This document shows positions 20,524 to 50,453 of a stretch of DNA of 64,000 nt, in pieces; position 1 is the stretch's first letter; every line of letters begins with the position of its first letter. The position numbers and the translations under genes are program-made. The notes under the pieces are model-generated. The model saw only the letters and a program-made list of their open reading frames with translations. It made no database searches and had not been told where the DNA came from. This DNA is from Chloroherpetonaceae bacterium (GTDB lineage: Bacteria; Bacteroidota; Chlorobiia; Chlorobiales; Thermochlorobacteraceae): assembly GCA_033763895.1 (NCBI GenBank), contig JANRJQ010000004.1, positions 804,319-868,318 of the forward strand. The letters run 5' to 3'.

Positions 20524-20613
20524 CGGAAAGAAAGCCTTATTTCAACCGTGAGAAAGCCTTATTGTTACGGAAAGAATAGGTTATTCTTTCCGTGAGAATA
20601 GGTTAATGTTGGC
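20524..20613. repeat. four alternating repeats of about 22 bp, including a perfect 12-bp inverted repeat
   Basis: Units CGGAAAGAAAGCCTTATT / CGTGAGAAAGCCTTATT / CGGAAAGAATAGGTTATT / CGTGAGAATAGGTTAAT. ACGGAAAGAATA-ggt-TATTCTTTCCGT lies at 20567-20593. Confidence 0.7.
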
Positions 20614-20614
20614 G

Positions 20615-20758
20615 TTGAAATCAAGCTTTGTTTCAGACTTGAAATCAAGCTTTGTTTCAGCCGTCAAAACAAGCTTTGATTTAACCTTGAAATCAAGCTT
20701 TGATTTGAGCGTTAAACCTAAGCTTGATTTTAACTTCAAAAATGACTTTTGAGGTCGG
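20615..20758. repeat. tandem array of 24-bp dyad-symmetric repeats (5 good copies plus 1 degenerate)
   Basis: Units start at 20615, 20639, 20663, 20687, 20711 and 20735 (the last degenerate). Consensus is TTGAAATCAAGCTTTGATTTNANC, and each unit can fold as AAATCAA-gct-TTGATTT. Confidence 0.85.
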
Positions 20759-27892: not shown

Positions 27893-29710
27893 ATGACACT
27901 CTCAGCTTCCTCAAGCGATTCACCCTCGCGTGAAAACTTAAAAACAAAGGCTCTTGAAGTCTTGTACAAATTTTTTGGATATCGAGAGTTTCGCGGTGGG
28001 CAAGAATCCATTATTCTCGAAGTTCTTTCGAAGCACGATGTCCTTGGGGTCATGCCCACTGGTCAGGGAAAATCCGTTTGTTATCAAGTTCCGGCTTTTG
28101 TCTTAACGGGTACCGCCATTGTAATTTCACCGCTTCTTGCTCTTATGAAAGATCAAGTGGATGGCCTTAAAGCTCGAAATTACCCTGCTGAAGCGCTCAC
28201 CAGCCAAACACCACCGGCACAAAGCACCAAGATCATCTCCGATTTAGAAGAGGGGAAAGTTAAGCTCCTTTTTGTTTCACCGGAGCGGCTACAAAACGAG
28301 CGATTTCAATTGCTTTTGCGTTCGATATCAATTTCGTTTATCGCTGTCGATGAAGCACATTGCATCTCAGAATGGGGCTATGATTTTCGCCCAAGTTATC
28401 AGGCCATAGGGAGTACCTTATCGAAAATTTTTCCCTCGAAAAGACCAAATATTGTTGCCCTAACTGCAACAGCAACCCAAGAGGTTCTTCAAGACATCCA
28501 AAAATTTCTTTCACTTTTCAACCCTTTCTTTTATGTAGGAGGGTTTGAACGTACCAACCTTTCACTCTCTATCTTTGAAGTTGAAAATAAACGCGCCAAA
28601 TTGATGCAAATCCTCAAGGCCGTTCCGGGCTCAGCAATTGTGTATTCAATGAGCCGTAAGCTTGCCGAAGAAACTGCCTTTTATCTCAATCAAAATGGAT
28701 ACCGCGCAGCGTTTTACCACGCCGGACTTCCTGATGAAAAGCGTGCGGAAATTCAAGACGGATTTTTTTCTGGAAAATATCCCATCATTTGCTCTACCAA
28801 TGCTTTTGGAATGGGCATCAATAAAACCGATGTTCGCGTTGTTATTCACCTTGAGCCGCCAGATACCCTTGAAGCATACTATCAAGAGGCCGGCCGTGCA
28901 GGACGTGATGGGAAAAAAAGCTATGCGGTTCTTCTTTTTCAAGAGGCTGATATTGAACGCCGCAAAGTGCTCGTTTCATCTGCAACACCCACCGCACGCC
29001 AAGCATTATGTCTTTATCAAATGATTGCAAGCTGGTACAAACCAAACACCCCTAAGCCACTCAAACTCCATCTTGCCGGCGATCTTTTTTCTGTTCCAAG
29101 AGATTTTCTTTCGGAAATGCTTCATAAAGTACACCCACTTGATTTTCCTTCTGATTCATTTCCGCCTATTGATGCCATTTTTTCTTTTCTTGAGCGGATG
29201 GGGCTTTTAAAGAACCACACCTCAAATGCCGAAGGGGAAAAACTTCACTTTTTTGTCTCGCGAGAGTCGATGGAAGAATATCTTCAACGGCCTACCCTCC
29301 CTTCAGAACACAAAGTTTTTCAAGCGATTTTGCGATACTTTAGCCACTCCGTTTTTTTGGAATCAAAACCATTTTCGTTGGCGTCGTTTTCTGAAAAGTC
29401 CGGAATCCCTGCATCGATTTCCGTTGAAGTGTTTCAGCATTGGCGCAGCATCAATATGGCACATTTTGAAGCTCAAGATCTGCTTGAAGCCGAGCTTCTT
29501 CGTTTGCCAACCCCAGAAATTCTTAATGATGCCCGATGGCAATTTTTGGATCAACGCAGAACCGTTATCCTAAAGAAACTTGCCGCCGTCAGTTCTTATA
29601 TTCACTATCAGCGTTGCCGTCGAAATTATCTTTTGGATTATTTCGGCGAAGCTTATTACACCGAGCGCTGCGGGATTTGCGATAATTGCCTTGGTCGGCA
29701 CAATACTTAA
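27893..29710 (+). CDS. RecQ-family ATP-dependent DNA helicase (atypical C-terminal region)
   Basis: 605 aa. Motifs MPTGQGKS, VDEAHCISEWGYDFRPSY, LTATAT and YYQEAGRAGRDG. The Zn motif CRRNYLLDYFGE...CGICDNC lies at the extreme C-terminus. No obvious HRDC domain. Confidence 0.85.
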   Translation: MTLSASSSDSPSRENLKTKALEVLYKFFGYREFRGGQESIILEVLSKHDVLGVMPTGQGKSVCYQVPAFVLTGTAIVISPLLALMKDQVDGLKARNYPAEALTSQTPPAQSTKIISDLEEGKVKLLFVSPERLQNERFQLLLRSISISFIAVDEAHCISEWGYDFRPSYQAIGSTLSKIFPSKRPNIVALTATATQEVLQDIQKFLSLFNPFFYVGGFERTNLSLSIFEVENKRAKLMQILKAVPGSAIVYSMSRKLAEETAFYLNQNGYRAAFYHAGLPDEKRAEIQDGFFSGKYPIICSTNAFGMGINKTDVRVVIHLEPPDTLEAYYQEAGRAGRDGKKSYAVLLFQEADIERRKVLVSSATPTARQALCLYQMIASWYKPNTPKPLKLHLAGDLFSVPRDFLSEMLHKVHPLDFPSDSFPPIDAIFSFLERMGLLKNHTSNAEGEKLHFFVSRESMEEYLQRPTLPSEHKVFQAILRYFSHSVFLESKPFSLASFSEKSGIPASISVEVFQHWRSINMAHFEAQDLLEAELLRLPTPEILNDARWQFLDQRRTVILKKLAAVSSYIHYQRCRRNYLLDYFGEAYYTERCGICDNCLGRHNT

Positions 29711-29715
29711 ACATC

Positions 29716-30177
29716 ATGTTAACATCTCAGTTAGATTTTCGCGCAAGCCTAATCAGTTGCCTTTCAGGATGTGGGTTTTTTCCGCTCGCACTTTCAGTTG
29801 TTTCTTATTTCAAGTTCGATTCTTTTCTTTTACCCTTTCAGATCATAGCTTCTTTTGTATTGGGTCCATCCGTCATCTCGGCAGAAAGCAATGCTTCATT
29901 TCCCGTATTGGGTTATGCATTGCTCATATTAAGCTTATGGTGTTTTGCTTTCGGGTTTTTGACTCATTTTCTCTTGCATCGTTGGGGAATCCTCGTCGGC
30001 ATTGTGGGAGGCGCTTTATTGGGATTGTGCGCTTTCGCCATTACATTCAAAATGCTCCCGTATTTTTTTGAGTGGAGCCGCGCTTTCTTGCGACCTGCTT
30101 TTGCAGTTGCTTTTCTTGCCTTCGGTGCTTGGAGTGGGGGCGTTTACGAATCGTTGGAAGAAGAACCGGAGAATTAA
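29716..30177 (+). CDS. hypothetical small membrane protein
   Basis: The ORF runs from 29686, but I prefer the ATG at 29716 just after the recQ stop. 4-5 hydrophobic helices and an acidic tail. Confidence 0.45.
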   Translation: MLTSQLDFRASLISCLSGCGFFPLALSVVSYFKFDSFLLPFQIIASFVLGPSVISAESNASFPVLGYALLILSLWCFAFGFLTHFLLHRWGILVGIVGGALLGLCAFAITFKMLPYFFEWSRAFLRPAFAVAFLAFGAWSGGVYESLEEEPEN

Positions 30178-30230
30178 AATCTTATTGCCACATCATCCGG
30201 CTATCTGTGAAAAAGGCTTGGATTAGGTTT

Positions 30231-30815
30231 TCAGCTCCCTTTCTCTTTTAAGGCAACTTTTCGAATGACCTTCTCACAGCCTTTGGTCATCCAAGCGGCA
30301 ATTTCATTGTAAGAAGGCAATTTTGGCTTATTTTTTTTCGTTGAACGATCTCGATCTCCTTCCTTTTTTGAGCCGCTACCGACAAATAAAAACGCAATTT
30401 GCAGTATGCCTTGTATCCCTGCCGACTCTCCGCAGTTGTAAATCACTTCCTTCTGAAGACGAAAAGCTTCTCGCATTAAGCGTTTAATTCGATTGCGTCT
30501 TGTCGCTTTAGGCTCAATTCTTTTTCCCACACTAAAAAGTGCTTGTATTCGAAACAATTTCGATTGTTCAACTTTCAGTATTTGGGTTTCCTTTTCAACA
30601 TCCAATTGCGTTTCCATTAGGGAGGGGTTCTTCTCATTCATTCCCATTTTTTCAACATCGAGGCGTTTGATTCTGCAAAGCATTTTCACCCCGCCCTCCC
30701 TGTGCACTGCAACACTCGAAGCGTTTTTATCAAAGAGCATCTCAAGCTCCTTTTTTGAGCGAATGATTTCTTCCTTTGTTAGCCCTGCCACTTTGGTGTC
30801 TTTTGCTTTATTCAA
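30231..30815 (-). CDS. rnpA: ribonuclease P protein component (long form)
   Basis: RNR motif KATRRNRIKRLMREAFR, N-terminal IIRSKKELEMLF element, and a position directly downstream of rpmH. At 194 aa it is long for this family. Confidence 0.75.
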   Translation of the reverse strand: MNKAKDTKVAGLTKEEIIRSKKELEMLFDKNASSVAVHREGGVKMLCRIKRLDVEKMGMNEKNPSLMETQLDVEKETQILKVEQSKLFRIQALFSVGKRIEPKATRRNRIKRLMREAFRLQKEVIYNCGESAGIQGILQIAFLFVGSGSKKEGDRDRSTKKNKPKLPSYNEIAAWMTKGCEKVIRKVALKEKGS

Positions 30816-31028: not shown

Positions 31029-31184
31029 TTACTTAGGTTTATTCTCGTCACTGACCGTCAATTTATAACGGCCTTTCTTTCGGCGCATTGCCAAAACTTT
31101 GCGACCATTCTTTGTCGCCATTCTCGAGCGAAAGCCGTGCTTGTTGCGACGCTTCCGGTTATGCGGTTGATATGTACGTTTCAT
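31029..31184 (-). CDS. rpmH: 50S ribosomal protein L34
   Basis: Hand-translated 51 aa: [51 protein letters not shown]. It falls below the ORF-track length cutoff. Confidence 0.95.
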
Positions 31185-31805
31185 CGTTTGTTAGGTTTCA
31201 GTGTTAATTTTTTTCTGCGGGCAATATCCCATTCCAATATGTTTTCAAACTGTCTCTCTGTAACGAATCATCCAAAAATCTTAGATTTTTTTCGCGTGAG
31301 AAATGCACGCACTTTTTAGGCCGAGTATTTCAGAAAAGAGCGCAAACTTACCACAGTTTTTTTTAAAAAACAAGTTTGACTCATTATATCTTTATTGTAT
31401 TATTGTCCCCTCATTTCGAGGTCACACCGCTTCGTTTTTTTCACTTTGTCGGTTCATCTTTTCCTTTTGGGCTATCAAGCTCTTGGGGAAGTGTCGCCTC
31501 TTGTCAATTCAGAGCGCGAGAGTGATTCATACAAATGGCTTTTTATGCTTCGATAGCAGGATGCGATATATTCACAATTGAATTTGAATTTGTCTTTCGA
31601 GAGTCTTGTTTTTTTCTTTTGATTCGTACTATTTACTTTCTCTTTTTTGGTAATCTCTGTTTTTTAAGGTGCAATATCGCTGATTTCACAACTGCATTTT
31701 TTGAATTGTTGTCAGCGCTCATTTTTGGGTGATTTCGGCGTGATTTTTGAAATTTTTTATCGAATTTTCGAAAAAATAAGCCAAGAATCATTAACGGGAA
31801 AAAAA

Positions 31806-31842
31806 TGTGGATAACTTGTGGATAGATGTGGAGAATTCCACA
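31806..31842. promoter_or_regulatory. cluster of DnaA boxes
   Basis: TGTGGATAA (31806-31814) is a perfect reverse complement of TTATCCACA. TGTGGATAG (31817-31825) has 1 mismatch and TGTGGAGAA (31827-31835) has 1. A weak inverted AATTCCACA follows, forming TGTGG-agaatt-CCACA. Confidence 0.65.
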
Positions 31843-32039
31843 TCCCCAATCTCCAATAAACTTCCGTTATTCTAATGTTACGGCAATGTTACTGCTTCGT
31901 TTCGCCTAAGTCTCGGTGAATTCGGTACTTACGCGTTTTCCTTGGCTTGAAAACGCATTATTTTTGGGCACTTGTCAACTGTATTCTTTATCAATATTAG
32001 CCAAAAGAGTCGCTTATTGCCGCAAGCCTATGTGGATAA

Positions 32040-32048
32040 AGCCTTTTT
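32040..32048. promoter_or_regulatory. perfect DnaA box 134 nt upstream of dnaA start
   Basis: TGTGGATAA at 32040-32048. Confidence 0.55.
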
Positions 32049-32181
32049 TAAGGAGAAATTCCATAGAGGTTAATGAAAATGCGACTCTTTGAGCATACAA
32101 TTCTCTATCTCTTCGATTGATGTGCTTTTGCACTCAAGGATGAGTAATAAAAATTTGAAAGTTTAGGATCCTTCATTCATA

Positions 32182-33942
32182 ATGGCTGAAAAACCAACTT
32201 CTTCGCTGATGAAAATCGGCCTCGAAATCTCTTCCTCTGCCCCATTGCCTTCGGGGTCGGAGTCGCCTTCCCTTTCGTCAAAATCCGCTTCGGCAAAGTC
32301 CGACCGCCAAAAAAAGGATCCGCTTCAAATTTCTTTGGAAATTCCACCTGCTGAATCTTCTCAGACACATGAATCCATTGAAGACCAAAAGTCAAACGAG
32401 ACGACACCTAAAACGCCATCGCTTGTAAATGCCACGGGATCCACACAAAAAGAAATAAACCAACCGTATCAGCCATTGCACTTAAAGCCCTCTGCGGAAC
32501 AAATTGCGGATCCTTTGGCGTCAAGCCGCACAGCCTCCGAGGTTTGGAATCAGTGCCTTGATTTCTTGCGCGATAACCTCAATCCTCAAGCCTTCAGCAC
32601 TTGGTTCGAACCCATCACGGCCGTCTCTCTTGTTGGTGAAGAACTTACCGTGCAAGTGAAAAGCCATTTTATTTATGAATTCATCGAAGAAAATTATTAC
32701 AACATTCTTCGCAGCAGTTTAATCAAGTTTGTGGGGCCCGGGGCAAAAATGCTTTACTCCGTTGAAGTGGTCAAGACGCAAGACCAAATGCCTTCCGTCA
32801 CGCTCACTTTACCACAGCAACATATCGAACAGCAATCGGAGCTTACACCTTATCGCATTTCGCAAAATCGGAAAATTTCTGAGCTGTTTCGCGCCAATGT
32901 CGAGCGGTTTCAAAGCTACCTGAACCCAAAGTATAGTTTCGATAACTACATCAAGGGCGATTGCAATGTTTTGGCCTACGCCGCTGCAAAATCTGTGGCT
33001 GAAAACCCCGGAAATAACAGCTATAACCCGCTTTTTATTTACGGCGGAGTCGGGCTGGGTAAAACCCACTTAATCCAATCTATTGGCAATTATGCTCGTG
33101 CAAAACAAAAGGCTGAGTTCGTGCTTTATGTTTCAAGCGAAAAATTCACTATCGATTTTGTAAGCGCCATTCAGAACGACCGAATTCGGGAATTTGCCGA
33201 GTTCTATCGCAGTATTGATTTGCTTATAATCGATGACATTCAATTCTTTGCCGGAAAAGAAAAAACGCAGGAAGAAATTTTTCACATCTTCAATGCCCTT
33301 TTTCAATCCAATAAACAAATTGTGCTCTCAAGCGATCGTCCGTTAAAAGATATTCGCGATATCGAAGAACGCCTTCTTTCACGCTTTGCTTCCGGTCTTT
33401 CAGCCGATTTGCAACTGCCCGATTATGAAACGCGGCTTGCCATCTTAAACCGCAAAAGCGAAGAACACGGCATCACCCTTGCGCGAGATGTCTCGCAATT
33501 CATTTGTACCAATGTCAATAGCAACATTCGTGAAATGGAAGGTTGCCTTATTAAACTCCTTGCCACGGCTTCGATTTCAGGGCAAGAAATCGATCTTGCG
33601 CTCGCAAAAAATGCCTTACGTGATATCATCAGAGAAAAAAGCAAGACCGTAACGCTTGAAATGATTGAAAAAGTCGTTGCCGATTATTTCGGACTCTCTG
33701 CCAATGACCTCAAAGGAAAATCGCGTAAACAGGAAATTGCGGAAGCTCGTCAAGTGGCAATGTTCCTTTCGAAAAATCAAACCGGTAAAACCCTTAAAAC
33801 AATTGGCCTTCACTTCGGCGGCCGCGATCACACCACCGTCATGCATGCCGTTTCGACCATTGAGTCTAAGCTCAATTCTTCTTTTGAAACCCGCCAAACG
33901 GTTGATGAACTTCGCAGAAGGCTTGATATCATCTCGCTTTAA
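32182..33942 (+). CDS. dnaA: chromosomal replication initiator protein DnaA (with long N-terminal low-complexity extension, start uncertain)
   Basis: Domain I-like EVWNQCLDFLRDNLNPQAFSTWFEPI begins at about residue 120. AAA+ Walker A GGVGLGKTHL and Walker B LLIIDDIQF. C-terminal DNA-binding region (QVAMFLSK...GGRDHTTVMHA). Confidence 0.92.
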   Translation: MAEKPTSSLMKIGLEISSSAPLPSGSESPSLSSKSASAKSDRQKKDPLQISLEIPPAESSQTHESIEDQKSNETTPKTPSLVNATGSTQKEINQPYQPLHLKPSAEQIADPLASSRTASEVWNQCLDFLRDNLNPQAFSTWFEPITAVSLVGEELTVQVKSHFIYEFIEENYYNILRSSLIKFVGPGAKMLYSVEVVKTQDQMPSVTLTLPQQHIEQQSELTPYRISQNRKISELFRANVERFQSYLNPKYSFDNYIKGDCNVLAYAAAKSVAENPGNNSYNPLFIYGGVGLGKTHLIQSIGNYARAKQKAEFVLYVSSEKFTIDFVSAIQNDRIREFAEFYRSIDLLIIDDIQFFAGKEKTQEEIFHIFNALFQSNKQIVLSSDRPLKDIRDIEERLLSRFASGLSADLQLPDYETRLAILNRKSEEHGITLARDVSQFICTNVNSNIREMEGCLIKLLATASISGQEIDLALAKNALRDIIREKSKTVTLEMIEKVVADYFGLSANDLKGKSRKQEIAEARQVAMFLSKNQTGKTLKTIGLHFGGRDHTTVMHAVSTIESKLNSSFETRQTVDELRRRLDIISL

Positions 33943-34241
33943 CAATCAATTGATTGTGGCCATTTCGCCGAAGCGTTTGCTTTCCATCCCATTCACCTCC
34001 ATTCAGATTAAACAATCATTGTTTCCCTTTTTGCTATTTTCGTTTTTCGATCTTTCCCGAAATGGTTTTCATTTTGGGACTTCTGCTTATAACTTTTTAC
34101 TTAATTCGAAGAATTAACGATTTCCTCTCGTTGAAGCGTTCTTTGAATGATGTTTTGGATACCTTTAACGAATCCTTAGGTATTTGATGGGCTTTGATAT
34201 TTGCTTTCGCATTTACATTTTTGAAAAACTCTGACCAACAA

Positions 34242-36701
34242 ATGGATTTATTTTCTCAACCCGTTGCCGCCTCACCGGAAAGTTCTCCCGAGCTGACCAA
34301 TGAAGAGGCAAAAAAGCTCTCTCTAGCCGCCGGGTTTCTTTCGAATGAATTGCTTTATGGAAAAGATTCAGAAGAAAATATTATCGCTGTTTCTACCCTT
34401 AACGATACACATATCCGCGTCTATAAACGAGATCGTTCCGGAAGCCTGATCCACCGAGATGACCCCTGTTATCCATTTTTCTTTCTATCCAAACACGGGT
34501 TTTTGAAAGACTTCCGCTCGGCTGATGGTTTTTGGTTGAAAGATCTCGAAGGCAATAATTATTACAAGCATCTGGCCATTTTTAGAAGTTGGAAGGAATA
34601 CCGTGCCGCTCAAGACTATGTTGCCGATACGAAGCGTCGGTTAAACCCAAAAGAAACCTTGGTAAGCGATGAAGATGGATTCGGGAATCGTGTAGAAGAA
34701 ATTTATGCCAAAGGTGACGCCTCTTCTCAATACCTTTTCCAATCAGGGAAAACGCTCTTCAAAGGGATGACTTTTCAAGATTTGCGCCGATTACAGTTGG
34801 ATATCGAAACCTACTGGAAGCCCGAAGCCACTCGTTCCGGAAAAATTGAAATCGGTAAAGATCCAATCATCATTGTCTCCCTTTCCGATAGCTCCGGTTG
34901 GGAAAAAGTCATTCACACAAAAGCACAAAGTGAAAAGGCCTTATTGCTTGAACTCATTGAAATCATTAAAGAGCGCGACCCCGATGTCATTGAAGGTCAT
35001 AACATTTTCAGTTTCGATTTACCTTACATTCAACGCCGCTGTGAACTTAATGGGGTTCGCTTTACCATAGGTCGCGATGGCTCCCTCCCACGCAGCTATC
35101 CGGCAAGCATTCGATTTGCCGAGCGCACCATCGATTACCCCTACTGCGAAATCGCCGGCCGTCATGTGGTGGATACTTTGTTTCTGGTTCAATATTTTGA
35201 TTCCGTCAAGCGGGCAATGCCTAGCTATAGCCTCAAAGAATCCGCCAAGTACTTCGGATTTGCTTCTGATTCCCGCACATACATTGCTCACGAAGACATC
35301 GCCCATACGTGGGATACCAATCCTGAGAAGCTTCTGAATTATGCGCTCGATGATGTTCGTGAAGCCGGAAAACTTTCCGAACTCCTTTCGGGGAGCAATT
35401 TTTATATGACCCAAATGATGCCCTTTTCCTACGGACAGGTTTCGAGAATGGGCCCTGCGGCAAAGATTGAAGCCCTCTTTGTTCGCGAATACTTGCGGCA
35501 AAAGCACTCACTTCCTCGGCCTCAAATCGGGCAGCAGGAGTCGGGCGGGTTTACCGAAGTTTTTCTTAAAGGAATTTTAGGTCCAATCGTTTATGCCGAT
35601 GTCGAATCGCTTTATCCATCCATTATGCTCACTTTTGATATTTGCCCAAAGTCAGATGAGCGAAAACTTTTTCCTAAAATTCTTAAAGACCTAAAAGAAC
35701 TTCGCTTTACCGCGAAACGCCGCGCCAAAACTTCCTCCGAAAAAGCCGAGCGTGACCTTTATGATGCAATGCAGAATTCCTTCAAGATTCTCATCAACGC
35801 AATGTATGGCTACCTTGGGTTTCGAGCAGGAATCTTTAATGATTATGCCGAAGCCGACCGGGTTACAACCAAAGGCCAAGAAATCGCCAAAAAAATGATT
35901 GTTGAATTCGAAAAACGCGGAAGCCGCGTGGTGGAAGTTGATACCGATGGAATTCTTTTAATTCCCCCTCCCAACGTTCAAGGTGAAGACGATGAACGCG
36001 CTTTGGTGAAATCAGTTTCCGACACAATGCCCGAAGGGATTTCAATCGCTTACGATGGTCGATTCAAAAAAATGATTTCTTATATGAAGAAGAACTATGT
36101 TCTTCAATCGTATGACGGCAAATTGAAAATCAAAGGGTCGTCCCTTGTTTCACGTAGCGGAGAAAAATTTGGCCGAGAGTTTGTCAAAAAGGGGTTCCAA
36201 CATCTGCTTGATTTCGATATCGTGGGGCTGCATCAACTCTTTATTCACACCCGCGAGCGAATTATCAAAAAAGAAATGGATGTCTCGGAATTCAGTCGAA
36301 CCGAAAGCCTCAAGGAATCAATGGATGAATACAAACTTGGTGTTAAAAATGGTAAGCCGAAACGAATCACTTATGAAGTTTTGATTCGTGCAAAAAAAGT
36401 TGCTTCAAAAGGTGACCGTGTGACCTACTACCTTTCAGGTTCCGGAATTATCGGAAATAACGCAGAAAAAGGAAAACTTTCATCGGAGTGGAATAAAGAC
36501 AAGCCTGATCAAAACATCGACTTTTACCTGCGCAGACTTGACGAATTCACCGATAAGTTTAAGCCTTTCTTCAAGCCCTCGGATTTCAGCCGAATTTTCA
36601 CCGCCGATGAGCTTTTTGGATTTACACCTGAGGGAATCGAATTGATTACAGAAATTCAAAATCGCGATAGTTCTGAAATCGATGATGAAGTTCCCTTTTA
36701 G
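34242..36701 (+). CDS. polB: family B DNA polymerase (Pol II-like)
   Basis: ExoI LQLDIETY, Exo[12 protein letters not shown], ExoIII YALDDV, motif [11 protein letters not shown], motif [13 protein letters not shown], motif C VEVDTDG. The ORF track starts at TTG 34194, but ATG 34242 (MDLFSQP) is more likely. Confidence 0.88.
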
Positions 36702-36947
36702 CGTTCTTCTACATTTGAAATGCCCTTTCGGGTGTCAAGTCCGCTTTTTTATTTTGCCGAGTGTTTCAAGTTATTGGTTACTTATTCACAAGTCATAATT
36801 TTACTTGGTTTGATTCATTTATTCATTTTGACTGTTCTTTTCTCTGAAGAGACACTTTTTTTTGATTAAATTACCCTTGTAAATAATCCGTATTCATTAA
36901 TTCCATCTGAATTTTTTACCCTTTTGTTTCAAAAGGGAATTTGATTT

Positions 36948-38120
36948 ATGTCCACAGTAGCTACTGATGTCCAAAAACGCCGCGTGCTCGTTGTTGATGA
37001 TGAGCCAAACATCGCCATCGGCATTCTAAAAACTTTAGGTCAACACCAACACTACTTTGCTAAGCATGCCCCAACCGGAGATTTAGCCGTTGAATTGCTG
37101 AAAAAAGAATCTTACGATTTGGTGATTACCGATATCAAGATGCCCAATAGCAAATTTCAGGGAATTGACTTGCTTCGGCATATTAGAACCAACTATCCGG
37201 ATATTGGTGTCATCATCATGACCGCCTACGGTTCAACCGCAGTTCAGGAAGAGGCCTCTCGGCGAGGGTCTCTTTTATATCTTGAAAAACCATTTGAATT
37301 CACCCATCTCCAACAAGTTGTTGATGATTTTTTTGATCGTAAAGAACATACTGCTGCACCTGCCGAGGCCGAAGCCGATAGCGGGGTTCAAGGTGTGATT
37401 CCGGGTCTTTCGTTAATGGATGTGATCCAAATGAATTGCCTTTCACGATCAACATGTACATTTCTTATTCAAAAAAGCGACGGTTCAGGGCAAGGTATTA
37501 TTTGCTTCAACAAAGGCGATATCACGCATGCCGAAACGCCAAACCGCAGCGGAAAAGATGCGTTTTTAGAAATCGTTTCTTGGCAAGGTGGAAGTTTTGA
37601 AACCCTTGATCAGATTTCGCCTACTGTTACCATTGTTGAAAGTTGGGAACAACTGATGATGGAGGCAGTGATGTTAATGCCTGATGCACCTGTTGCTCAG
37701 CCCGGCGCCGCTTCTCCAAAGGCAGTTGCTAAGCCACAAGCACCCGCACCGAAGCCGCAAGCCGACCTTGACCCAGCGAAAATGCTTGATCGCGTGCTCG
37801 ATGCCGCGAAAGCTGATGCCGCTTTTTTAGTCACACACAGTGGTTTTATGCTTGATAAACGTGTCAAAGCAACTTTAGATATTACGAAAACCGGCGATGA
37901 AATTGCCAAGTTGATGCCCGGCGTTTTTGCTTTCGGAAAGAATATTGGGGGAGGAACACTTTCTGAAATCACCTTTCGCTTCGGAAACAAAATTGTGATG
38001 GTGCGCAATGTCCAAGAGAGTGAAGCACTGTTTATTGTAATTTCACCGGCATCAATTACTTCGGGTGATATATTCAAAGCAATTGATCGTGAATCAGCAA
38101 CGCTCAAAAAAATTCTTTAA
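36948..38120 (+). CDS. response regulator: receiver + DUF4388 (PATAN-type) + Pro/Ala linker + Roadblock/LC7-like C-terminal domain
   Basis: REC motifs VLVVDDE, DLVITDIKMP, IIMTAYG and LEKPF. DUF4388-like LSLMDVIQMNCLSRSTCTFLI...GIICFNKGDITHAE...AFLEIVSWQGGSFE. Linker PGAASPKAVAKPQAPAPKPQ. The C-terminal 110 aa or so shows a Roadblock-like pattern (AAFLVTHSGFML...ITFRFGNKIVMVRNV...LFIVIS). Confidence 0.75.
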   Translation: MSTVATDVQKRRVLVVDDEPNIAIGILKTLGQHQHYFAKHAPTGDLAVELLKKESYDLVITDIKMPNSKFQGIDLLRHIRTNYPDIGVIIMTAYGSTAVQEEASRRGSLLYLEKPFEFTHLQQVVDDFFDRKEHTAAPAEAEADSGVQGVIPGLSLMDVIQMNCLSRSTCTFLIQKSDGSGQGIICFNKGDITHAETPNRSGKDAFLEIVSWQGGSFETLDQISPTVTIVESWEQLMMEAVMLMPDAPVAQPGAASPKAVAKPQAPAPKPQADLDPAKMLDRVLDAAKADAAFLVTHSGFMLDKRVKATLDITKTGDEIAKLMPGVFAFGKNIGGGTLSEITFRFGNKIVMVRNVQESEALFIVISPASITSGDIFKAIDRESATLKKIL

Positions 38121-38217
38121 AGCAACTTGTTCGATATCTTTTAAGTTTTTGATTTAGAAATCGATTAGCTTTTTGTAACTTTTTCTCATATCCTGCAAAT
38201 AAAGCGCAGGGGTTTTC

Positions 38218-38583
38218 ATGACAAATTTTAGTGAAGTTCTTTCCGTATTTAACGGAATCCAAGGGGTAATCGGTGTTTCCGTTGTCGATAGCGATGGAAT
38301 GCATTTGGTATCTTCATTTCCCGGGACGGAATTCAATGATGCCCTTTCGCCGGTCATTTGCTATTTAACAAGTGATGCGACAAAGCATCTTCAAGTTTTG
38401 GGTGAGTCTCCAAATCAGGTTTGTATTTCGATGAGTGATAAATTAATTATAATCCAATTGGTTTATGATCTCATCCTTGTGGTTTATAGTCAGAAGCGCA
38501 ATTTGCACGCAGTTCAAACAGCCATCGAATCCGCTTCATTAATCTTGAATCGAATTGCAACAGTAGAATTTTCAAACACATAA
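38218..38583 (+). CDS. mglB: Roadblock/LC7 domain protein (MglB-like GTPase-activating partner)
   Basis: 121 aa. The pattern GVIGVSVVDSDGMHLVSSFP ... KLIIIQLVYDLILVVY is typical of Roadblock/LC7. It lies 11 nt upstream of the mglA-like gene. Confidence 0.75.
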   Translation: MTNFSEVLSVFNGIQGVIGVSVVDSDGMHLVSSFPGTEFNDALSPVICYLTSDATKHLQVLGESPNQVCISMSDKLIIIQLVYDLILVVYSQKRNLHAVQTAIESASLILNRIATVEFSNT

Positions 38584-38594
38584 CTTTATCAGCA

Positions 38595-39290
38595 ATGGCA
38601 AATATCAATTACGCGAATAAGGAAATCATTATTAAGATCGTTTACTACGGTCCGGGGATGAGCGGAAAAACCACCAACTTGCAAGTGCTTCATCAAATGG
38701 TTCCGCAAGATTCCGCAAGCAAGATGATTTCACTTGCCACAGAGCAAGATCGCACCCTGTTTTTCGATTTATTGCCAATTTCATTGGGCTCAGTGAAAGG
38801 CTTCAATACTAAGTTTCAGCTTTACACCGTTCCGGGTCAGGTTTATTACAATACCACAAGAAAATTGGTGCTTAATGGCGTTGATGGCGTTGTTTTTGTC
38901 GCAGATTCTCAGCAAGGAAAAATGCCTGAAAACATTGAAAGTTTGAATAACCTTAAAGATAATCTTTCTGAGTATGGGATTGATATGGCCAAGTTTCCGG
39001 TTGTATTGCAGTACAATAAGCGAGATGTGGCTAATCCAATTACCATCGATGAATTCCAATCAACCTTAAATGCTGCTTACAACTTTCCTTATTCTGAAGC
39101 AGTTGCCTTTAAAGGTCAAGGTTTAATGGAAACATTGAAGTTGATTAGCAAAATAACATTGCAGCGCATTGGCTCTAAAACCAGTTCCGCCACAACACCG
39201 GCAGAGCCCTCTGCTCAGCCAGCGAACCCTGCGACACCACCACCGCAAGCCAGCAGCGAATTTTTCAAGAATCTTCAAAAGAAAATGTAA
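38595..39290 (+). CDS. mglA: MglA-family Ras-like small GTPase with Pro/Ala-rich C-terminal extension
   Basis: Colinear with Myxococcus MglA as I recall it: NYANKEIIIKIVYYGPGMSGKTTN, DRTLFFD, LYTVPGQV, GVDGVVFVADSQ, QYNKRD. It has about 35 extra C-terminal residues. Confidence 0.88.
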   Translation: MANINYANKEIIIKIVYYGPGMSGKTTNLQVLHQMVPQDSASKMISLATEQDRTLFFDLLPISLGSVKGFNTKFQLYTVPGQVYYNTTRKLVLNGVDGVVFVADSQQGKMPENIESLNNLKDNLSEYGIDMAKFPVVLQYNKRDVANPITIDEFQSTLNAAYNFPYSEAVAFKGQGLMETLKLISKITLQRIGSKTSSATTPAEPSAQPANPATPPPQASSEFFKNLQKKM

Positions 39291-39379: not shown

Positions 39380-40708
39380 TCATTTTTTAGTAAATGTGAT
39401 TTCTGTCCCATTTAATCCAATCTCAATTTGATCCCCTTCACGAAAAGTGCCTGAAAGAATTTTTTCTGCCAATGTATTGACAATTGTTCGCTGCATCACG
39501 CGCTTGAGTGGCCGAGCACCAAAGGAAGGATCGTAGCCCAATTGTGACAACCAATCTTTTGCCGCTTCATTCAGCTCAAGGGTTAAGCCTTGTTTTTGGG
39601 CCGATTCCCGAATCCGTTCAAATTGAATCTGCACAATGGCATTCGTTTCATCTCGGGTAAGTGGCATGAACATAATCACCTCATCAATTCGGTTTAAGAA
39701 TTCAGGGCGCACTTTTTTTCTTAACAGTTCAAACACTTCAACCTTTAACTTTGATACCACTTCCCGTCGGTTATCATCGGTAATGAATTGAAGTTGATCT
39801 TGAATCAGTTGCGAACCCAAATTGCTTGTCATGATAATTATGGTATTCTTAAAGTTAACTACATGACCTTTGTTATCGGTCAACCGGCCATCATCAAGCA
39901 CTTGTAAAAGAATATTAAAGACATCTTGATGCGCTTTTTCTATTTCATCCAAGAGCACAACAGAAAAGGGATGTCGCCTTACTGCTTCAGTGAGTTGCCC
40001 GCCTTCATCATACCCCACATAACCCGGCGGTGCACCAACCAGCCTTGATACGCTATGAGCTTCCATATACTCGCTCATATCAATTCGTACCAAGGCATTT
40101 TCGTCGTTAAATAAATATTCAGCTAAACTCTTGGCTAATTCCGTTTTACCTACGCCAGTTGTTCCTAAAAAAATGAATGATCCGATTGGCCGCCGTTCAT
40201 CTGAAAGCCCTGCCCTTGCCCGCCTTACGGCTTCGGCTACTGCTTTTATGGCTTCATCTTGGCCGATTACGCGTTTGTGTAATTCAGATTCAAGCGAAAG
40301 GAGTTTTTGCCGCTCCGATTGTAACATCTTTGAAACAGGAATCCCTGTCCATTTGGCCACCACTTGCGCAATATCCTCTGCACCGACTTCCTCTTTCATC
40401 ATCGCACCATTTTGCTGCATCGTTTCGAGTCTTGTTTTAGCTGATTCAAGTTCTTTTTGCAAGGCGGTAATTTTACCATAGCGCAATTCTGCTACTTTAC
40501 CGAAATCACCGTTTCGCTCAAATTCTTCTGCCTGAACCTTTGCTGACTCTATTTCACTCTTCAATCGTCGTAATTCTGTGATGGCCTCTTTTTCCCGTTG
40601 CCACTTCGCTTGTATTCGCGATTGCTCCTCGCGTAAATCAGCCAATTCCCGTTCGATTTCCTGAAGCCTAACTTCAGTTAGAGAAATCACTTCGTTTTCT
40701 TTTTTCAT
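39380..40708 (-). CDS. ClpB-like AAA+ protein consisting only of distal M-domain + NBD2 + C-terminal small domain
   Basis: 442 aa. It aligns to the C-terminal half of ClpB: [30 protein letters not shown], Walker [10 protein letters not shown], Walker [40 protein letters not shown] lies 4 nt upstream of the ATG. There is no NBD1 coding sequence upstream. Confidence 0.8.
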
Positions 40709-44139: not shown

Positions 44140-44613
44140 TTATGCACCTGCAGCAGTTTCTTTTGCACTTGAATCCTTTTTGGTTTTCGATTCTTTTGAA
44201 CCTCGAACGCGTTTTGCACGATCTTGCTTTTGTGCCTTTGGCGCTTCAGTAATTTCGCTGTAATCGACAAGTTCAATGAAAGCCATTTTTGCACCGTCAC
44301 CAAAACGGGGTGGCATTTTCACCACACGTGTATATCCACCGTTGCGAGCGGAAGTTTTACTTGCGACGTCTCCAAATAGCTCTTTTATCGCTTCTTTATC
44401 CTTAATGACTTTAAAGACTTCGCGTTGTGCGTGAAGTGTACCGGCTTTGGCCTTTGTAATTAAGGGTTCAAAGTACATGCGTAGGTCTTTTGCCTTAGCT
44501 TCTGTTGTTTGAATCCGCTTGTGCAAAATTAATTGTGTACAAAGATTCGACATCAAAGCATGTCTGTGGGTTGTCGTCCGTCTTAATTTACGGAGCGGTT
44601 TCAATTTTCTCAT
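44140..44613 (-). CDS. rplQ: 50S ribosomal protein L17
   Basis: [24 protein letters not shown]...[11 protein letters not shown]. Last gene of the alpha operon. Has a C-terminal Lys-rich extension. Confidence 0.95.
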
Positions 44614-44654
44614 TTTTCTAAATCGTTACTGGTGTATAATCTTGTAAACTGTCC

Positions 44655-45647
44655 TTAGATTTCTTTTAGGCGGTATTTGCTCACATCCATTCCGAAATGA
44701 ATGCCGCGTGTTTCGACAAGTTCGCGCAATTCCGCGAGTGATTTTTTTCCAAAGTTTTTGAAATTGAGCAATTCTTCTTCTCTTTTTGCAACCAACTGGC
44801 CTAAGGTTTCAATTTCCGCCGAACGCAAGCAATTGTGAGAACGCACGGAAAGTTCAAGATCTTCAATGCGTGTGGTTAAGAGATTTCTCATTCGGTTAAA
44901 CTCCTCATCATCAGTCTTGGTCGTTTCAGTCATCACTTCTTCATCTGCGGTTTGAGTAAACTGAGAGAAGAGCTTAATATGATCACTAATTATCCTACCA
45001 GCCAAAGTAATTGCTTCATCTGGTAATATTGAACCGTCAGTTTCTACTTCCAAATTCAATTTTTCATAGTCTGTTCTCTGACCAACACGAGTATTTTCAA
45101 CACTATAACGAACATTCTTGATTGGTGTATAAATTGAATCCACTGGAATAAATCCAATTGGCGCATTATCTGGTTTGTTGTCTTCCGCCGGAACATAGCC
45201 TCTACCTCTGCCTACGGATATATCAATTTTCAAAGTGGCATTTTTATTGAGTGTCGCGATATGAAGTTCCGGATTGAGAATTTCAAAATCAACTTCTGGG
45301 CTTACAATATCACCTGCTACAAAATCCTTTGGTCCCTTTAAAACTAAAGAGACGGTTGCGCTTTTTTTGCTGATTGAACGGAATCGGACTTGTTTCAGAT
45401 TGAGAATGATATCAGGTAAATCTTCCTTAACACCTTCAATTGTTGAGAATTCATGCAATACGCCATCAATTTTAATCCCTGTTATCGCAGTTCCGGGAAG
45501 AGAAGAAAGTAATACCCTACGAAGTGTATTGCCAATCGTAACACCGTATCCGCGTTCTAGCGGTTGAGCTGTAAATTTGCCGTAGTTATTTGAATAGGAC
45601 GCTTCGTCTAATTCTAACTTTTCCGGCATTTGCATTGATTGTATCAT
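44655..45647 (-). CDS. rpoA: DNA-directed RNA polymerase subunit alpha
   Basis: 330 aa. [21 protein letters not shown] in the N-terminal domain and [11 protein letters not shown] in the C-terminal domain. Confidence 0.97.
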
Positions 45648-45702
45648 ATCTTCAAATTTTTTATTCTTAACTGGCGACTTACTTCTACTGTAGTCTTAGC
45701 TG

Positions 45703-46314
45703 TTACTTCGAGTACAATTCAACAACCAACTGCTCGTTGAAAGGTTCGTTGACATCCGCACGATCGGGTATGGCTAAGAAAGTTGCTTTAGCCGCTGCTT
45801 TATCAACTGCGATCCATTTTGCAATGGTGTTTTCAATTCTTTTATTCAACGAGGCTCGCACTGCTTCTAAGTCCTTGCTTTTTTCACGGAAAGTAATCAC
45901 ATCTCCGGCTTTCAATTGAAATGAAGGGATATTGACTTTTTTTCCATTGATAAGCAAGTGTCCGTGAGAAACCAATTGGCGAGATGCGCGGCGAGATACA
46001 GCGAATCCCGCGCGATAAATTACATTATCCAGACGGCGCTCAAGCATTTTTACTAAGTTATCACCGGTAACACCTCTTTGTGACGCCGCTTTTTCGTAAT
46101 AATTTCGAAATTGCTTTTCAAGGACGCCATAGATGTACTTCATTTTTTGCTTTTCGCGAAGCTGAACGGCATATTCAGAAATCTTGCTTTTTCTGGATTG
46201 CCCGTGCTGACCCGGTGGGTAAGGACGACGCTCAAGATATTTCTCATCTTTGGCGGTAATTGCAACGCCCAGTCTTCGTGAAACTTTTGCTGTTGAACCT
46301 AGGTATCGTGCCAT
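45703..46314 (-). CDS. rpsD: 30S ribosomal protein S4
   Basis: [16 protein letters not shown]..., an S4 RNA-binding domain, and its operon position. Confidence 0.97.
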
Positions 46315-46341
46315 TTGGCTTTATCTCCCAATAATTATCGA

Positions 46342-46725
46342 TTAAACTCTTCTGCGTTTTGGAGGGCGGCATCCATTGTGAGGAAGCGGCGTAATATCGC
46401 GGATTGAACGAACTTCTAATCCGGCTACTTGCATCGAACGTATCGCTGCGTCTCTCCCCGAACCCGGCCCTTTAATCAGCACATCCACTTTTCTCATTCC
46501 CAATTCGTGGGCTTCTTTTGCGGCTGATTCCGCTGTTACCTGTGCTGCGTAAGGCGTATTCTTTTTTGAACCTTTAAATCCCATTTTGCCTGCGGTTGAC
46601 CAAGAAACGGTGTTACCGACAGAATCTGTAATCGTGACAAGCACATTATTGAAGGTCGCTTTAACATGCGCAATGCCTTCACTGGTAACCGATACTTTTT
46701 TCTTCTTTTTTACTGGACTGGCCAT
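46342..46725 (-). CDS. rpsK: 30S ribosomal protein S11
   Basis: [18 protein letters not shown]...[11 protein letters not shown]...[13 protein letters not shown]. Confidence 0.97.
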
Positions 46726-46741
46726 CTTTCAACTTTATTTT

Positions 46742-47122
46742 TTACTTTTTAGCTGCTGCTTTCTTCTTACCTGCAACCGTCTTTCGCTTTCCTTTACGTG
46801 TACGCGCATTGGTTCGCGTTCTTTGACCCCTCACCGGCAAACCTCTCCGATGACGAAGTCCTCTATAGCAACCAATATCCATTAATCGCTTAATTGAAAG
46901 TTGCTGCTCACTTCTAGCTTGACCTTCAACACGGTATTCCGATGTAATAATGCTACGAATCGCATTCGCATCATCATCTGTCAGTTCTGCAATTTTTCGA
47001 TCTTCACTAATTTTAGCTTTTGCCAAAATTTTTTGAGCTGAAGATTTTCCAATTCCATAGATGTAAGTTAAACCAATAACCGAGCGCTTATTTCTCGGTA
47101 AATCCACCCCTGCTATACGCAT
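46742..47122 (-). CDS. rpsM: 30S ribosomal protein S13
   Basis: [25 protein letters not shown]...[16 protein letters not shown]. Confidence 0.97.
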
Positions 47123-47157
47123 GTGCTCTTCTGTTTAATAATTGGGATTAATTGAAA

Positions 47158-47274
47158 TTACCCTTGGCGTTGTTTATGATTCGGGTTTTTCTTGCAAATC
47201 ACCAAAATTTTCCCATTTCTTTTGATAATCTTGCAACTCTCGCAACGCTTTTTAACCGATGAATAGACTTTCAT
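47158..47274 (-). CDS. rpmJ: 50S ribosomal protein L36 (Zn-ribbon type)
   Basis: Hand-translated 38 aa: [38 protein letters not shown]. Below the ORF-track cutoff. Confidence 0.93.
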
Positions 47275-47370
47275 ATTGTGCTTCTCTTTTCTTGTTCCAG
47301 ACCTTTCTTTTCCCGTTAAGGTATATAAAAAAAGGGCGCAAAGATAAAAAAATATAACTTTCCAACCAAT

Positions 47371-47589
47371 TTATTTATAACGGTAGTTAATTCTACCCTT
47401 CGAGAGATCGTAAGGTGAAACTTCTACCCTTACACGGTCTCCCGGTAAGATTTTAATAAAATTCATTCTCATTTTTCCCGAAATATGTGCAAGAATTTCA
47501 AGGTTATTTTCAAGTTTTACCCTAAAACTTGCATTCGGGAGGGCTTCTAAAATAACCCCATCAATTTCAATTGCTTCTTCTTTCGCCAA
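47371..47589 (-). CDS. infA: translation initiation factor IF-1
   Basis: 72 aa: [29 protein letters not shown]...[16 protein letters not shown]. Confidence 0.97.
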
Positions 47590-47613
47590 ACGAATTAAAG
47601 ATTTAATGATGAA

Positions 47614-48444
47614 TTAGAGACTAACAAGTTGTTCAGCTCGTACCGCTTTAGTTTCGCTTCTTTTCAAGCGGGATATTGTTAAAACCTCTGCTCTATCTTT
47701 GCGAACGATAATCGTGTGCTCAAAGTGTGCGGAGGGTTTTCCATCCCCCGTAATGGCGGTCCAAGTGTCGGAACCAATTTTTGCTTTTCTTGACTTTCCA
47801 AGATTAATCATTGGTTCAATTGCTAGAGCCATCCCTTCTCTTAAAAATGTACCGGTTCCTCTTTTTCCTAGGTTTGGCACTGCAGGCTCTTCATGCAACC
47901 TTGTTCCAATACCGTGGCCAACCATATTTTCAATTATACCGTAGCCAAATTTTTCAGCGTTTTCCTGAATGGCTGCAGATATATCAAAGAGCCTCTTCCC
48001 TACAATAGCTTGTTCAATTCCCAATTCTAAACAGTGCTCTGTTTCTTCGACCATTTTTTTTATTTCAGGCTTTACCTCACCAACAATAAATGTTCTGGCA
48101 GAATCTGAGTGGTAACCATTCTTGAATGCGCCACAATCAACTGAAACAATATCGCCACTCTTAATTACGCGTTTCAAATTTGGTATCCCGTGTACAACCT
48201 CCTCGTTGATTGAGGTGCAAAGTGTAGCGGGATATGGTCTTGTCCCCACTGATCCTTTCGGAACATAATTCAAAAAACTTGGCAAAGCTCCTTGACCTCG
48301 AATAAATTCTTCGGCTAAAACATCCAAGTGCTTAGTTGTGATACCTTCTCGAATTTCTTGCTGTAACAAGTCAAGGGCCTCTGCAACAATTCGTCCGGCC
48401 TCACGCATCAGTTCAATCTCTTTTTCGCTTCGTGCCGTAATCAT
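47614..48444 (-). CDS. map: type I methionine aminopeptidase (with C-terminal extension)
   Basis: Metal-ligand context VVHGIP, DIVSVDCGA, GHGIG, LAIEPM, HFEHT. No adk gene lies between secY and map. Confidence 0.93.
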   Translation of the reverse strand: MITARSEKEIELMREAGRIVAEALDLLQQEIREGITTKHLDVLAEEFIRGQGALPSFLNYVPKGSVGTRPYPATLCTSINEEVVHGIPNLKRVIKSGDIVSVDCGAFKNGYHSDSARTFIVGEVKPEIKKMVEETEHCLELGIEQAIVGKRLFDISAAIQENAEKFGYGIIENMVGHGIGTRLHEEPAVPNLGKRGTGTFLREGMALAIEPMINLGKSRKAKIGSDTWTAITGDGKPSAHFEHTIIVRKDRAEVLTISRLKRSETKAVRAEQLVSL

Positions 48445-48447
48445 TTT

Positions 48448-49785: not shown

Positions 49786-49830
49786 TCTCTATTGGGCATT
49801 ACGATTTACGGCGGCTCTTATTTAATTGCA

Positions 49831-50421: not shown

Positions 50422-50453
50422 GTTATTATTATCTCTTTAATAGAATACTCGTG

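Follow-up and report, generated by a model that had tools for sequence, protein, structure and literature searches.

Bacterial family-B DNA polymerases include group G3, which corresponds to the Pol-epsilon-N-like or EpsilonN-like clade (Kazlauskas et al.). The PolB proteins of Chlorobi have been assigned to G3 (PMC7544198, PMC12926913), and a G3 PolB was reported to be present in all Chlorobi surveyed, with one B-family polymerase per Chlorobi genome listed in a table of that study and placed in G3 in its text (PMC12926913). A glutamate in motif C (E-x-DTD) has been described as a synapomorphy of the clade, which in the published phylogeny groups with Pol-epsilon-N, B9 and B10 and not with B3 (PMC7544198). 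According to published surveys, G3 is still uncharacterised. Escherichia coli DNA polymerase II (polB) represents another subgroup, G1, and is under SOS/LexA control (PMC12926913).

As regards gene order, the canonical cluster is composed of rnpA-rpmH and dnaA-dnaN-recF(-gyrB). In Synechococcus-type cyanobacteria, an oriC-like cluster of DnaA boxes lies upstream of dnaN and away from dnaA. The G3 papers are silent on genomic context, and nothing was found in the literature on dnaA-polB gene order.

The DNA analysed here is a 64-kb stretch (hereafter the window) of a Chloroherpetonaceae metagenome-assembled genome (MAG), which is the single genome available for its lineage. A previous, sequence-only reading of the window proposed that the gene 3' of dnaA, on the same strand, encodes a family-B polymerase, and this is borne out by matches of its product to Pfam DNA_pol_B (PF00136; 3.6e-25, 89.1 bits, cutoff 23) and DNA_pol_B_exo1 (PF03104; 2.2e-14, 53.9 bits, cutoff 23). 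Two start codons can be considered for this gene, the ATG at 34242 and a TTG at 34194, the latter giving 835 aa and a distance of 251 nt to the dnaA stop codon; the deposited product, MDX2128234.1, is the 819-aa form, with 100% identity. All six exonuclease and polymerase motifs quoted in that reading were found (Table 1), and their catalytic residues, i.e., D187, E189, D259, Y367 and D371 in the case of the exonuclease, are invariant across 16 aligned sequences, among them Armatimonadota homologues at 40% identity. Motif C is preceded by VE to give VEVDTDG, and the glutamate concerned, E565 (35934-35936), is invariant in 16/16 of the aligned sequences.

Table 1. Features of the origin-type gene cluster and of the polB gene in the window
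Feature	Position (nt)	Strand	Remarks
rnpA (RNase P protein)	30231..30815	-	Pfam Ribonuclease_P, 4.9e-9; left flank of origin-type cluster
rpmH (ribosomal protein L34)	31029..31184	-	51 aa; divergent from dnaA
DnaA boxes, three in tandem	31806..31835	-	+ strand letters TGTGGATAA, TGTGGATAG, TGTGGAGAA
Fourth DnaA box	32031..32039	-	perfect; 143 nt 5' of annotated dnaA start
dnaA	32182..33942	+	586 aa; TIGR00362 and Pfam DnaA_N, Bac_DnaA, Bac_DnaA_C
dnaA-polB spacer	33943..34241	+	299 nt, 35% GC
polB, group G3 family-B DNA polymerase (assigned from sequence)	34242..36701	+	819 aa; PF00136, PF03104
3'-5' exonuclease motifs ExoI-ExoIII	34800..35357	+	all intact
ExoI, DIETY	34800-34814	+	residues 187-191; DxE
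ExoII, FSFDLPY	35007-35027	+	from residue 256; NIFSFD at 254-259 fits NxxxFD
ExoIII, YALDDV	35340-35357	+	from residue 367; YALDD at 367-371 fits YxxxD
Polymerase motifs A, B and C	35598..35951	+	all intact
Motif A, DVESLYPS	35598-35621	+	from residue 453; fits DxxSLYPS
Motif B, KILINAMYG	35784-35810	+	from residue 515; fits KxxxNxxYG
Motif C, VDTDG	35937-35951	+	from residue 566; DTDG at 567
ADELFGF near the C-terminus	36603..36623	+	candidate beta-clamp-binding motif
Terminator-like hairpin, then CTTTTTTATT	36729..36743	+	28 nt past polB stop
Response regulator with DUF4388, MglB/roadblock-like gene, MglA-like small GTPase	36948..39290	+	Pfam; downstream flank of polB

Near the C-terminus of PolB, the sequence ADELFGF is a putative beta-clamp-binding motif, and the corresponding pattern, [ATD][DG]xLF[GAS]F, is present approximately 30 residues from the C-terminus in 14/14 Chlorobiales PolB orthologues. 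A beta-clamp motif has been reported for G3 in the literature. An N-terminal candidate, QMDLF, was rejected, as it requires the upstream TTG start and is not conserved in orthologues.

On the basis of its sequence, the window PolB belongs to group G3 and is not Pol II-like. This assignment relies on its orthology to P0062, the sole PolB of Chlorobaculum tepidum, with which it shares 61% identity across 95% of its length, on the published placement of the Chlorobi enzymes in G3, and on the motif-C glutamate of the clade, which the window PolB possesses. Its identity to Chlorobiales orthologues amounts to 58-73%. At the protein level no difference from G3 was observed: the N-terminal, exonuclease and polymerase domains are shared, motif C reads E-x-DTDG, and the active sites of the DEDDy exonuclease and of the polymerase are intact, while a conserved C-terminal motif is a candidate for beta-clamp binding. 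What is added here to the published picture of this group, as described below, concerns genomic context, namely the pairing of mnmG with polB, the location of polB within the dnaA cluster, and the junction of dnaA with polB.

The label 'Pol II-type' given in the sequence-only reading is consequently incorrect. The window PolB and E. coli Pol II have in common a family-B fold and proofreading, and by analogy may both be accessory polymerases using the beta clamp, but the three NCBIfam Pol II equivalogs all scored below cutoff, with the best, NF004421, at 112 bits against 570 (NF004422, 82 against 1103; NF004420, 52 against 1435). Furthermore, when solved structures in the PDB were ranked against a profile of the family, an order that reflects similarity and not phylogeny, E. 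coli Pol II (85 bits) was a far weaker match than archaeal B3 polymerases (238 bits), with Pol delta and Pol alpha scoring between these two and Pol epsilon (63 bits) below Pol II. The top-scoring structures are those of the archaeal PolB3-type enzymes of Pyrococcus and Thermococcus (Pfu, KOD and Tgo), with which all six motifs are shared, profile positions 34-743 aligning with residues 15-735 of Pfu, i.e., near full length (E 1.7e-69). Unlike these enzymes, the window polymerase is encoded by a bacterial gene without an archaeal PCNA context, and NCBIfam archaeal PolB models (PRK05761) were matched far below their cutoffs (best, NF004419, 76.5 against 1285).

Upstream of polB, the window retains part of the canonical cluster, with rnpA and rpmH divergent from dnaA and DnaA boxes in between. 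Pfam Ribosomal_L34 was found on the gene of relatives at the rpmH position. The rpmH-dnaA spacer contains four DnaA boxes against 0.31 expected (at most one mismatch), and this cluster adjoins dnaA, as expected of an oriC located at dnaA. The DnaA protein scored 524 bits against TIGR00362 (cutoff 344) and carries a low-complexity N-terminal extension of approximately 110 aa relative to its relatives (476-512 aa). Unlike the canonical cluster, that of the window lacks dnaN, recF and dciA after dnaA, and yidD and yidC after rnpA; the full dnaA-dnaN-recF-dciA order is retained in relatives. No homologue of dnaN, recF, mnmG or yidC was identified by tblastn in the whole 64-kb window, in keeping with the earlier statement that dnaN is not the neighbour of dnaA. 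On the other side of polB, the genes for the response regulator with DUF4388, MglB and MglA were found beside polB in none of the relatives searched (tblastn, L001-L047). An Rfam search of the window returned one tRNA and nothing else. For a truncated clpB gene (39380-40708), derivation from the 861-aa ORF located at 8275-10860 was considered and rejected for lack of similarity, and an NBD1 remnant was not found upstream of it.

The dnaN gene of this MAG was located on a different contig of 361,737 bp (L055). Its product (P0288, MDX2130368.1) shares an accession series with DnaA and PolB (MDX2128233/4) and was found in the same sequencing run, this contig being placed in the same genome by binning and accession numbers and not by a physical link. 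The 393-bp AT-rich spacer 5' of the displaced dnaN contains five DnaA boxes against 0.14 expected, and this cluster is stronger and denser than that at dnaA. A similar association occurs in Chloroherpeton thalassium, where dnaN is not adjacent to dnaA and is accompanied by 12 DnaA boxes in 667 bp. The location of boxes upstream of dnaN and away from dnaA in both the MAG and C. thalassium resembles the Synechococcus-type arrangement, with the difference that the window also retains its four-box cluster upstream of dnaA. No change of GC-skew sign was observed at 32 kb, where dnaA is located; skew at four-fold sites and in intergenic regions is dominated by codon bias and coding strand, and is uninformative on replication within 64 kb. 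The ribosomal protein genes clustered at 44-64 kb are oriented toward dnaA.

Comparison with related genomes indicates where polB ordinarily resides. In 37/37 other Chlorobiales loci, polB follows mnmG (gidA). The Chlorobiaceae show the order polB-roo-x-<recF<dnaN<dnaA in all 25 loci with enough flanking sequence, polB being convergent with the dnaA-dnaN-recF(-dciA) genes and separated from their end by 3-5 kb. The same type of order, again with polB convergent at 3-5 kb, was found in two further lineages (L051, L058). From the constancy of the mnmG-polB pair, together with the proximity of polB to the dnaA operon in these lineages, it follows that an origin-proximal polB is ancestral, and the expectation that such a polymerase would usually lie elsewhere in the genome fails for the Chlorobiales. 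Direct, co-oriented adjacency of dnaA and polB was encountered in the window genome alone, the gene 3' of dnaA being dnaN in L049-L052 and L058, xseB in L053/L054 and small ORFs in L059. Other Chloroherpetonaceae also possess a broken dnaA|dnaN junction, with different partners.

Given this repeated breakage of dnaA|dnaN in the Chloroherpetonaceae and the ancestral order of the relatives, the adjacency is probably (at roughly 80%) a by-product of a rearrangement specific to this lineage, at a junction that has been broken more than once, and not a conserved functional unit. The suggestion that a rearrangement had displaced dnaN fits both its position on another contig and the ancestral order in relatives. 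The Chlorobiales ancestor would have possessed the order yidC<-rnpA<-rpmH<- (DnaA boxes) dnaA->dnaN->recF->dciA-> ... <-polB<-mnmG. In the lineage of the MAG, two breaks would have occurred in this cluster, one at dnaA|dnaN and one at mnmG|polB. The orientation of polB with respect to dnaA would have been reversed and polB placed directly 3' of dnaA, with dnaN departing together with its AT-rich upstream spacer, rich in DnaA boxes, to what is now another contig. A single inversion breaking these two junctions was rejected as the sole event: it predicts the order mnmG->dnaN->recF, and L055 contains neither mnmG nor recF around dnaN, its flanks being a 121-aa ORF without assigned identity upstream and DUF5362 downstream, so that more than one event is needed. 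Main transcription of polB would probably initiate from its own promoter within the spacer, and the motifs of PolB suggest that it most likely serves in gap filling or restart, as an accessory polymerase with high accuracy and dependence on the clamp. As part of this explanation taken as a whole, the window polB is in all likelihood orthologous to the G3 polymerase that the Chlorobi carry in single copy and have inherited vertically.

An alternative and doubtful explanation holds that G3 PolB is a core part of the replisome in Chlorobiota, acting as a trans-acting proofreader or as a second clamp-bound replicase. Its position in the origin cluster would then reflect this role, and the window would present a rearranged or extreme form of the linkage. 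The Chlorobi surveyed, all of which have a G3 PolB, are reported to possess a DnaE1 with an inactive PHP domain and no canonical DnaQ (PMC12926913), which is in agreement with such a role, as are the intact and invariant exonuclease and polymerase sites, the conserved C-terminal LF motif and the order-wide linkage of polB to mnmG and to dnaA-dnaN-recF-dciA. By sequence identity, PolB is also conserved at least as well as DnaA and better than DnaN, at 61-65%, 56-62% and 44%, respectively, in the same genome pairs. This explanation, however, draws on sequence and gene order, and origin-proximal synteny may reflect plain inheritance. Moreover, the linkage has been lost in several Chloroherpetonaceae, with no dnaA within the polB flanks of L001-L010 and dnaA lacking a polB neighbour within 10 kb in L049, L053 and L059, and dnaA, dnaN, recF and mnmG were not found near the G3 loci of Fimbriimonadales.

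Selection for the adjacency itself, whereby polB would be co-transcribed or co-regulated with dnaA, its supply tracking initiation or gaining from origin-proximal dosage, appears improbable. The two genes lie on the same strand, 299 nt apart, and a hairpin in the spacer (34055-34079; 11-bp stem, fold z-score -2.6) has a weak T tail, which makes read-through possible and leaves room for co-transcription; dosage could also matter, given that polB is origin-proximal throughout the order. Against this, the arrangement occurs in one genome, and elsewhere in the Chlorobiales polB follows mnmG and is convergent with the dnaA operon wherever the two are close. As the sequence-only reading had observed, the spacer contains no DnaA box (none at up to one mismatch, and one at two mismatches, which is the chance level). 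In addition, the functional oriC of this MAG may or may not be at dnaA, considering the stronger boxes upstream of dnaN. The benefit in co-regulation or dosage put forward earlier for the adjacency thus finds no comparative support, the case being that of one genome with a hairpin and no DnaA box in the spacer.

That faulty assembly or binning produced a chimeric contig has very little probability, even if the source is a MAG and no relative shares its gene order. Window positions 31695-37305, junction included, were recovered at 100% identity in an independently made Logan contig (L048; run DRR729080, 5611 bp), which extends from the rpmH-dnaA spacer through dnaA and polB into the beginning of the following gene. 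As both assemblies probably derive from the same reads, this comparison checks the assembler and not the library. No repeat of at least 28 nt is present at or near 33.9-34.2 kb, and GC content is even over the junction (0.42-0.44). An assembly artefact is therefore unlikely, owing to the identical second assembly and the lack of a repeat.

Finally, recent acquisition of polB by horizontal transfer, or its insertion 3' of dnaA on a mobile or viral element, is scarcely credible, for although a viral entry of G3 into bacteria has been proposed (PMC7544198) and the window PolB scores nearest to archaeal PolB, its nearest homologues are those of Chloroherpetonaceae (66-73% identity) followed by Chlorobiaceae (57-62%), a taxonomic pattern matched by DnaA, surveys have reported polB for every member of the Chlorobi that they covered, no integrase, transposase, flanking repeat or mobile-element signature was found at the junction, and any transfer of polB would be older than the order.

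The type of PolB encoded in the window is thus already known in Chlorobi, and its adjacency to dnaA, as a gene-order variant of one genome, is of little weight. Of greater interest is the order-wide embedding of a G3 polB among the genes of the origin cluster, as part of a conserved block linked to mnmG and, in the Chlorobiaceae, at 4-5 kb from dnaA-dnaN-recF, which provides a reason to examine the essentiality and clamp binding of this polymerase. In the Chloroherpetonaceae, dnaA|dnaN has been broken repeatedly and at least two genomes carry a region rich in DnaA boxes upstream of dnaN and away from dnaA; in this family, oriC predictions that rely solely on where dnaA lies may therefore be wrong. 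If the core-role explanation were true, G3 PolB would serve normal chromosome replication and not optional repair, supplying the proofreading that DnaE1 lacks or acting as a second replicase.

The sequence-only reading had placed a family-B DNA polymerase gene, rather than dnaN, directly after dnaA, and this was confirmed by ORF order, Pfam matches, polymerase motifs and the lack of dnaN in the window. The rnpA, rpmH and dnaA genes constitute a classic origin-type cluster, and none of dnaN, recF, mnmG or yidC was found in the 64-kb window. The window DnaA and PolB are 100% identical to consecutive proteins (MDX2128233.1 and MDX2128234.1) encoded on a 959,073-bp contig of a Chloroherpetonaceae MAG, while a 5,611-bp contig from the Logan assembly of run DRR729080 is identical to window positions 31695-37305 and thus crosses the dnaA-polB junction. 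As both assemblies were probably built on the same reads, their agreement tests the assembler and not the library. GC content is even across the junction, no repeats of at least 28 nt were found near it, and a chimeric join is unlikely.

Features of the window
Feature	Position	Strand	Remarks
Intergenic repeats	14905-15467, 18240-18358		short, dispersed; either side of 764-aa ORF
764-aa ORF	15555-17849	-	13 tandem units of 141-147 nt
24-nt unit	20594-20737		AAATCAAGCTTTGTTTCAGACTTG-like, five tandem copies
RecQ-family helicase gene	27893-29710	+	neighbour of rnpA
rnpA	30231-30815	-	origin-type cluster
rpmH	31029-31184	-	origin-type cluster
rpmH-dnaA spacer			996 bp; 4 DnaA boxes (0.31 expected)
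dnaA	32182-33942	+	TIGR00362, 524 bits
Extra part of dnaA	32182-32520	+	
dnaA-polB spacer			299 bp; 0 DnaA boxes
Spacer hairpin	34055-34079		11-bp stem, weak T tail
polB	34242-36701	+	819 aa; alternative TTG start at 34194; DNA_pol_B, DNA_pol_B_exo1 (Pfam)
Terminator-like site	36729-36743		after polB
RR-DUF4388, MglB/roadblock-like, MglA-like small GTPase genes	36948-39290	+	directly downstream of polB
ClpB-like ORF	39380-40708	-	442 aa
fusA, tuf, S10-spc-alpha ribosomal protein, secY, rpoA cluster	44140-63978	-	10-30 kb right of dnaA
tRNA-Gly (TCC)	53954-54027	-	within ribosomal protein gene cluster

Window positions 27893-30815 lack yidD and yidC, both of which come after rnpA in every relative examined; a RecQ-family helicase gene stands in their place, indicating that the origin cluster is rearranged on its left flank too. 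The annotated DnaA comprises 586 aa versus 476-512 aa in relatives; its first ~110 residues are Ser/Pro/Lys-rich and homology begins near residue 110-119. The surplus reflects either an extended N-terminus or annotation of the start codon too far upstream. Elsewhere in the window, GC content is locally raised (0.49) in the region of the repetitive 764-aa ORF, and GC skew there is strongly negative, down to -0.35. The flanking intergenic repeats resemble REP or MITE elements; their direct copies share 91-97% identity, and their inverted arms show 78-86% complementarity.

All six family-B motifs were located where the sequence-only reading had put them, yet its ‘Pol II-type’ label could not be upheld: the best NCBIfam Pol II model gave 112 bits, below its cutoff of 570, ruling out an E. 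coli Pol II equivalog. With the family profile run against solved structures, Thermococcales PolB scored 238 bits over a nearly full-length alignment, E. coli Pol II 85 bits and Pol epsilon 63 bits. Published work assigns the Chlorobi enzyme to bacterial group G3, part of the EpsilonN-like clade, whose marker is a glutamate in motif C (PMC7544198). Motif C of the window PolB reads VEVDTDG, and in a 16-sequence alignment reaching down to 40%-identical Armatimonadota homologues, E565 and the catalytic residues of the six motifs are invariant. A 2026 survey reported that every Chlorobi species has one G3 PolB, that this uncharacterised group keeps its exonuclease and polymerase sites intact and carries a beta-clamp motif, and that in Chlorobi the DnaE1 PHP domain is inactive and canonical DnaQ absent (PMC12926913). 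Both the protein family and its occurrence throughout the Chlorobi surveyed have already been published. The window PolB shares 61% identity with the only PolB of Chlorobaculum tepidum, and an [ATD][DG]xLF[GAS]F motif ~30 residues before the C-terminus, retained in 14/14 Chlorobiales sequences, is a candidate clamp-binding site.

Among Chlorobiales polB loci from a species-representative genome collection, all 37 that extend upstream of polB have mnmG (gidA) there. The order mnmG->polB->roo->x-> <-recF<-dnaN<-dnaA / rnpA->yidC-> was observed in all 25 Chlorobiaceae loci whose flanks were long enough, with the ends of polB and dnaA about 4.2-4.7 kb apart. Two non-Chlorobiaceae lineages (loci L051 and L058) keep an arrangement of this type in which dciA follows recF. 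Together these loci indicate that a polB close to the origin and convergent with the dnaA operon is the ancestral state in Chlorobiales. Fimbriimonadales G3 loci possess none of these origin-cluster or mnmG neighbours. The roo-like flavodiiron gene (ODP/flavodoxin) is always present between polB and recF in Chlorobiaceae (L011-L036, L045, L046); L051 and L058, which are of the Chloroherpetonaceae type, lack it there.

The window is the only compared locus with dnaA->polB. Loci L049/L050 carry dnaA-dnaN-recF-dciA with polB elsewhere; L053/L054 carry dnaA->xseB->yceD->fabH; L059 has small ORFs after dnaA; in L057, about 7 kb separate <-polB<-mnmG from a dnaN that has no dnaA next to it; and in Chloroherpeton thalassium ATCC 35110 (L056), dnaN-recF-dciA follows ftsZ, an MFS transporter gene and a Crp-type regulator gene, with no adjoining dnaA. 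The dnaA-dnaN junction has thus been broken several times in Chloroherpetonaceae, with a different outcome each time, the dnaA-polB junction being a lineage-specific variant. Joining the polB head to the dnaA tail would require breaks between mnmG and polB and between dnaA and dnaN, with polB inverted relative to dnaA. A single inversion as the sole event predicts mnmG->dnaN->recF, which is not the order on the Logan contig bearing dnaN of the same MAG (L055), and at least one further event is therefore needed. The three genes now following polB, a type of module typical of polarity or gliding control, adjoin polB in no other locus compared. The ClpB-like ORF beyond them, possibly a split gene or the mark of a rearrangement breakpoint, retains only the coiled-coil part, NBD2 and D2-small domain. 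Its upstream sequence shows no trace of NBD1, and the ORF is not similar to the 861-aa ORF at 8275-10860.

The alternative raised by the sequence-only reading, that a rearrangement displaced dnaN, is supported, as dnaN of the same MAG (product MDX2130368.1) lies on another contig, 361,737 bp long, and was also recovered from the same sequencing run. On L055, dnaN is followed by DUF5362 without recF and preceded by an oriC-like spacer (366-758; 393 bp, 30% GC) with 5 DnaA boxes at up to one mismatch, the threshold for all spacer counts (0.14 expected), or 10 at up to two. The spacer upstream of Chloroherpeton thalassium dnaN (L056:9334-10000, CP001100 at about 1.004 Mb) holds 12 boxes in 667 bp. 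At least two genomes of the family thus have an oriC-like element that precedes dnaN and is separate from dnaA. Skew over 64 kb is uninformative as to which box cluster fires. Transcription of the ribosomal protein gene cluster runs toward dnaA and would meet head-on any fork that started from an origin there.

The proposal of dosage or co-regulation for dnaA-polB was unsupported. The terminator-like site after polB is better than the hairpin in the dnaA-polB spacer, and sigma-70-type promoter scans, whose model may not suit the phylum, returned background level only; we infer that polB is transcribed separately from dnaA. Identity in the same genome pairs is 61-65% for PolB, 56-62% for DnaA and 44% for DnaN. 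The window PolB would be an accurate, proofreading and probably clamp-dependent polymerase, by default read as an accessory gap-filling or restart enzyme. That G3 PolB forms part of normal Chlorobi replication is improbable, though conceivable given its reported presence in all Chlorobi, the reported lack of DnaQ and the origin-cluster linkage. The order-wide mnmG-polB pairing and dnaA-cluster linkage, of which no mention was found in the literature searched, represent a more useful by-product than the dnaA-polB junction itself.
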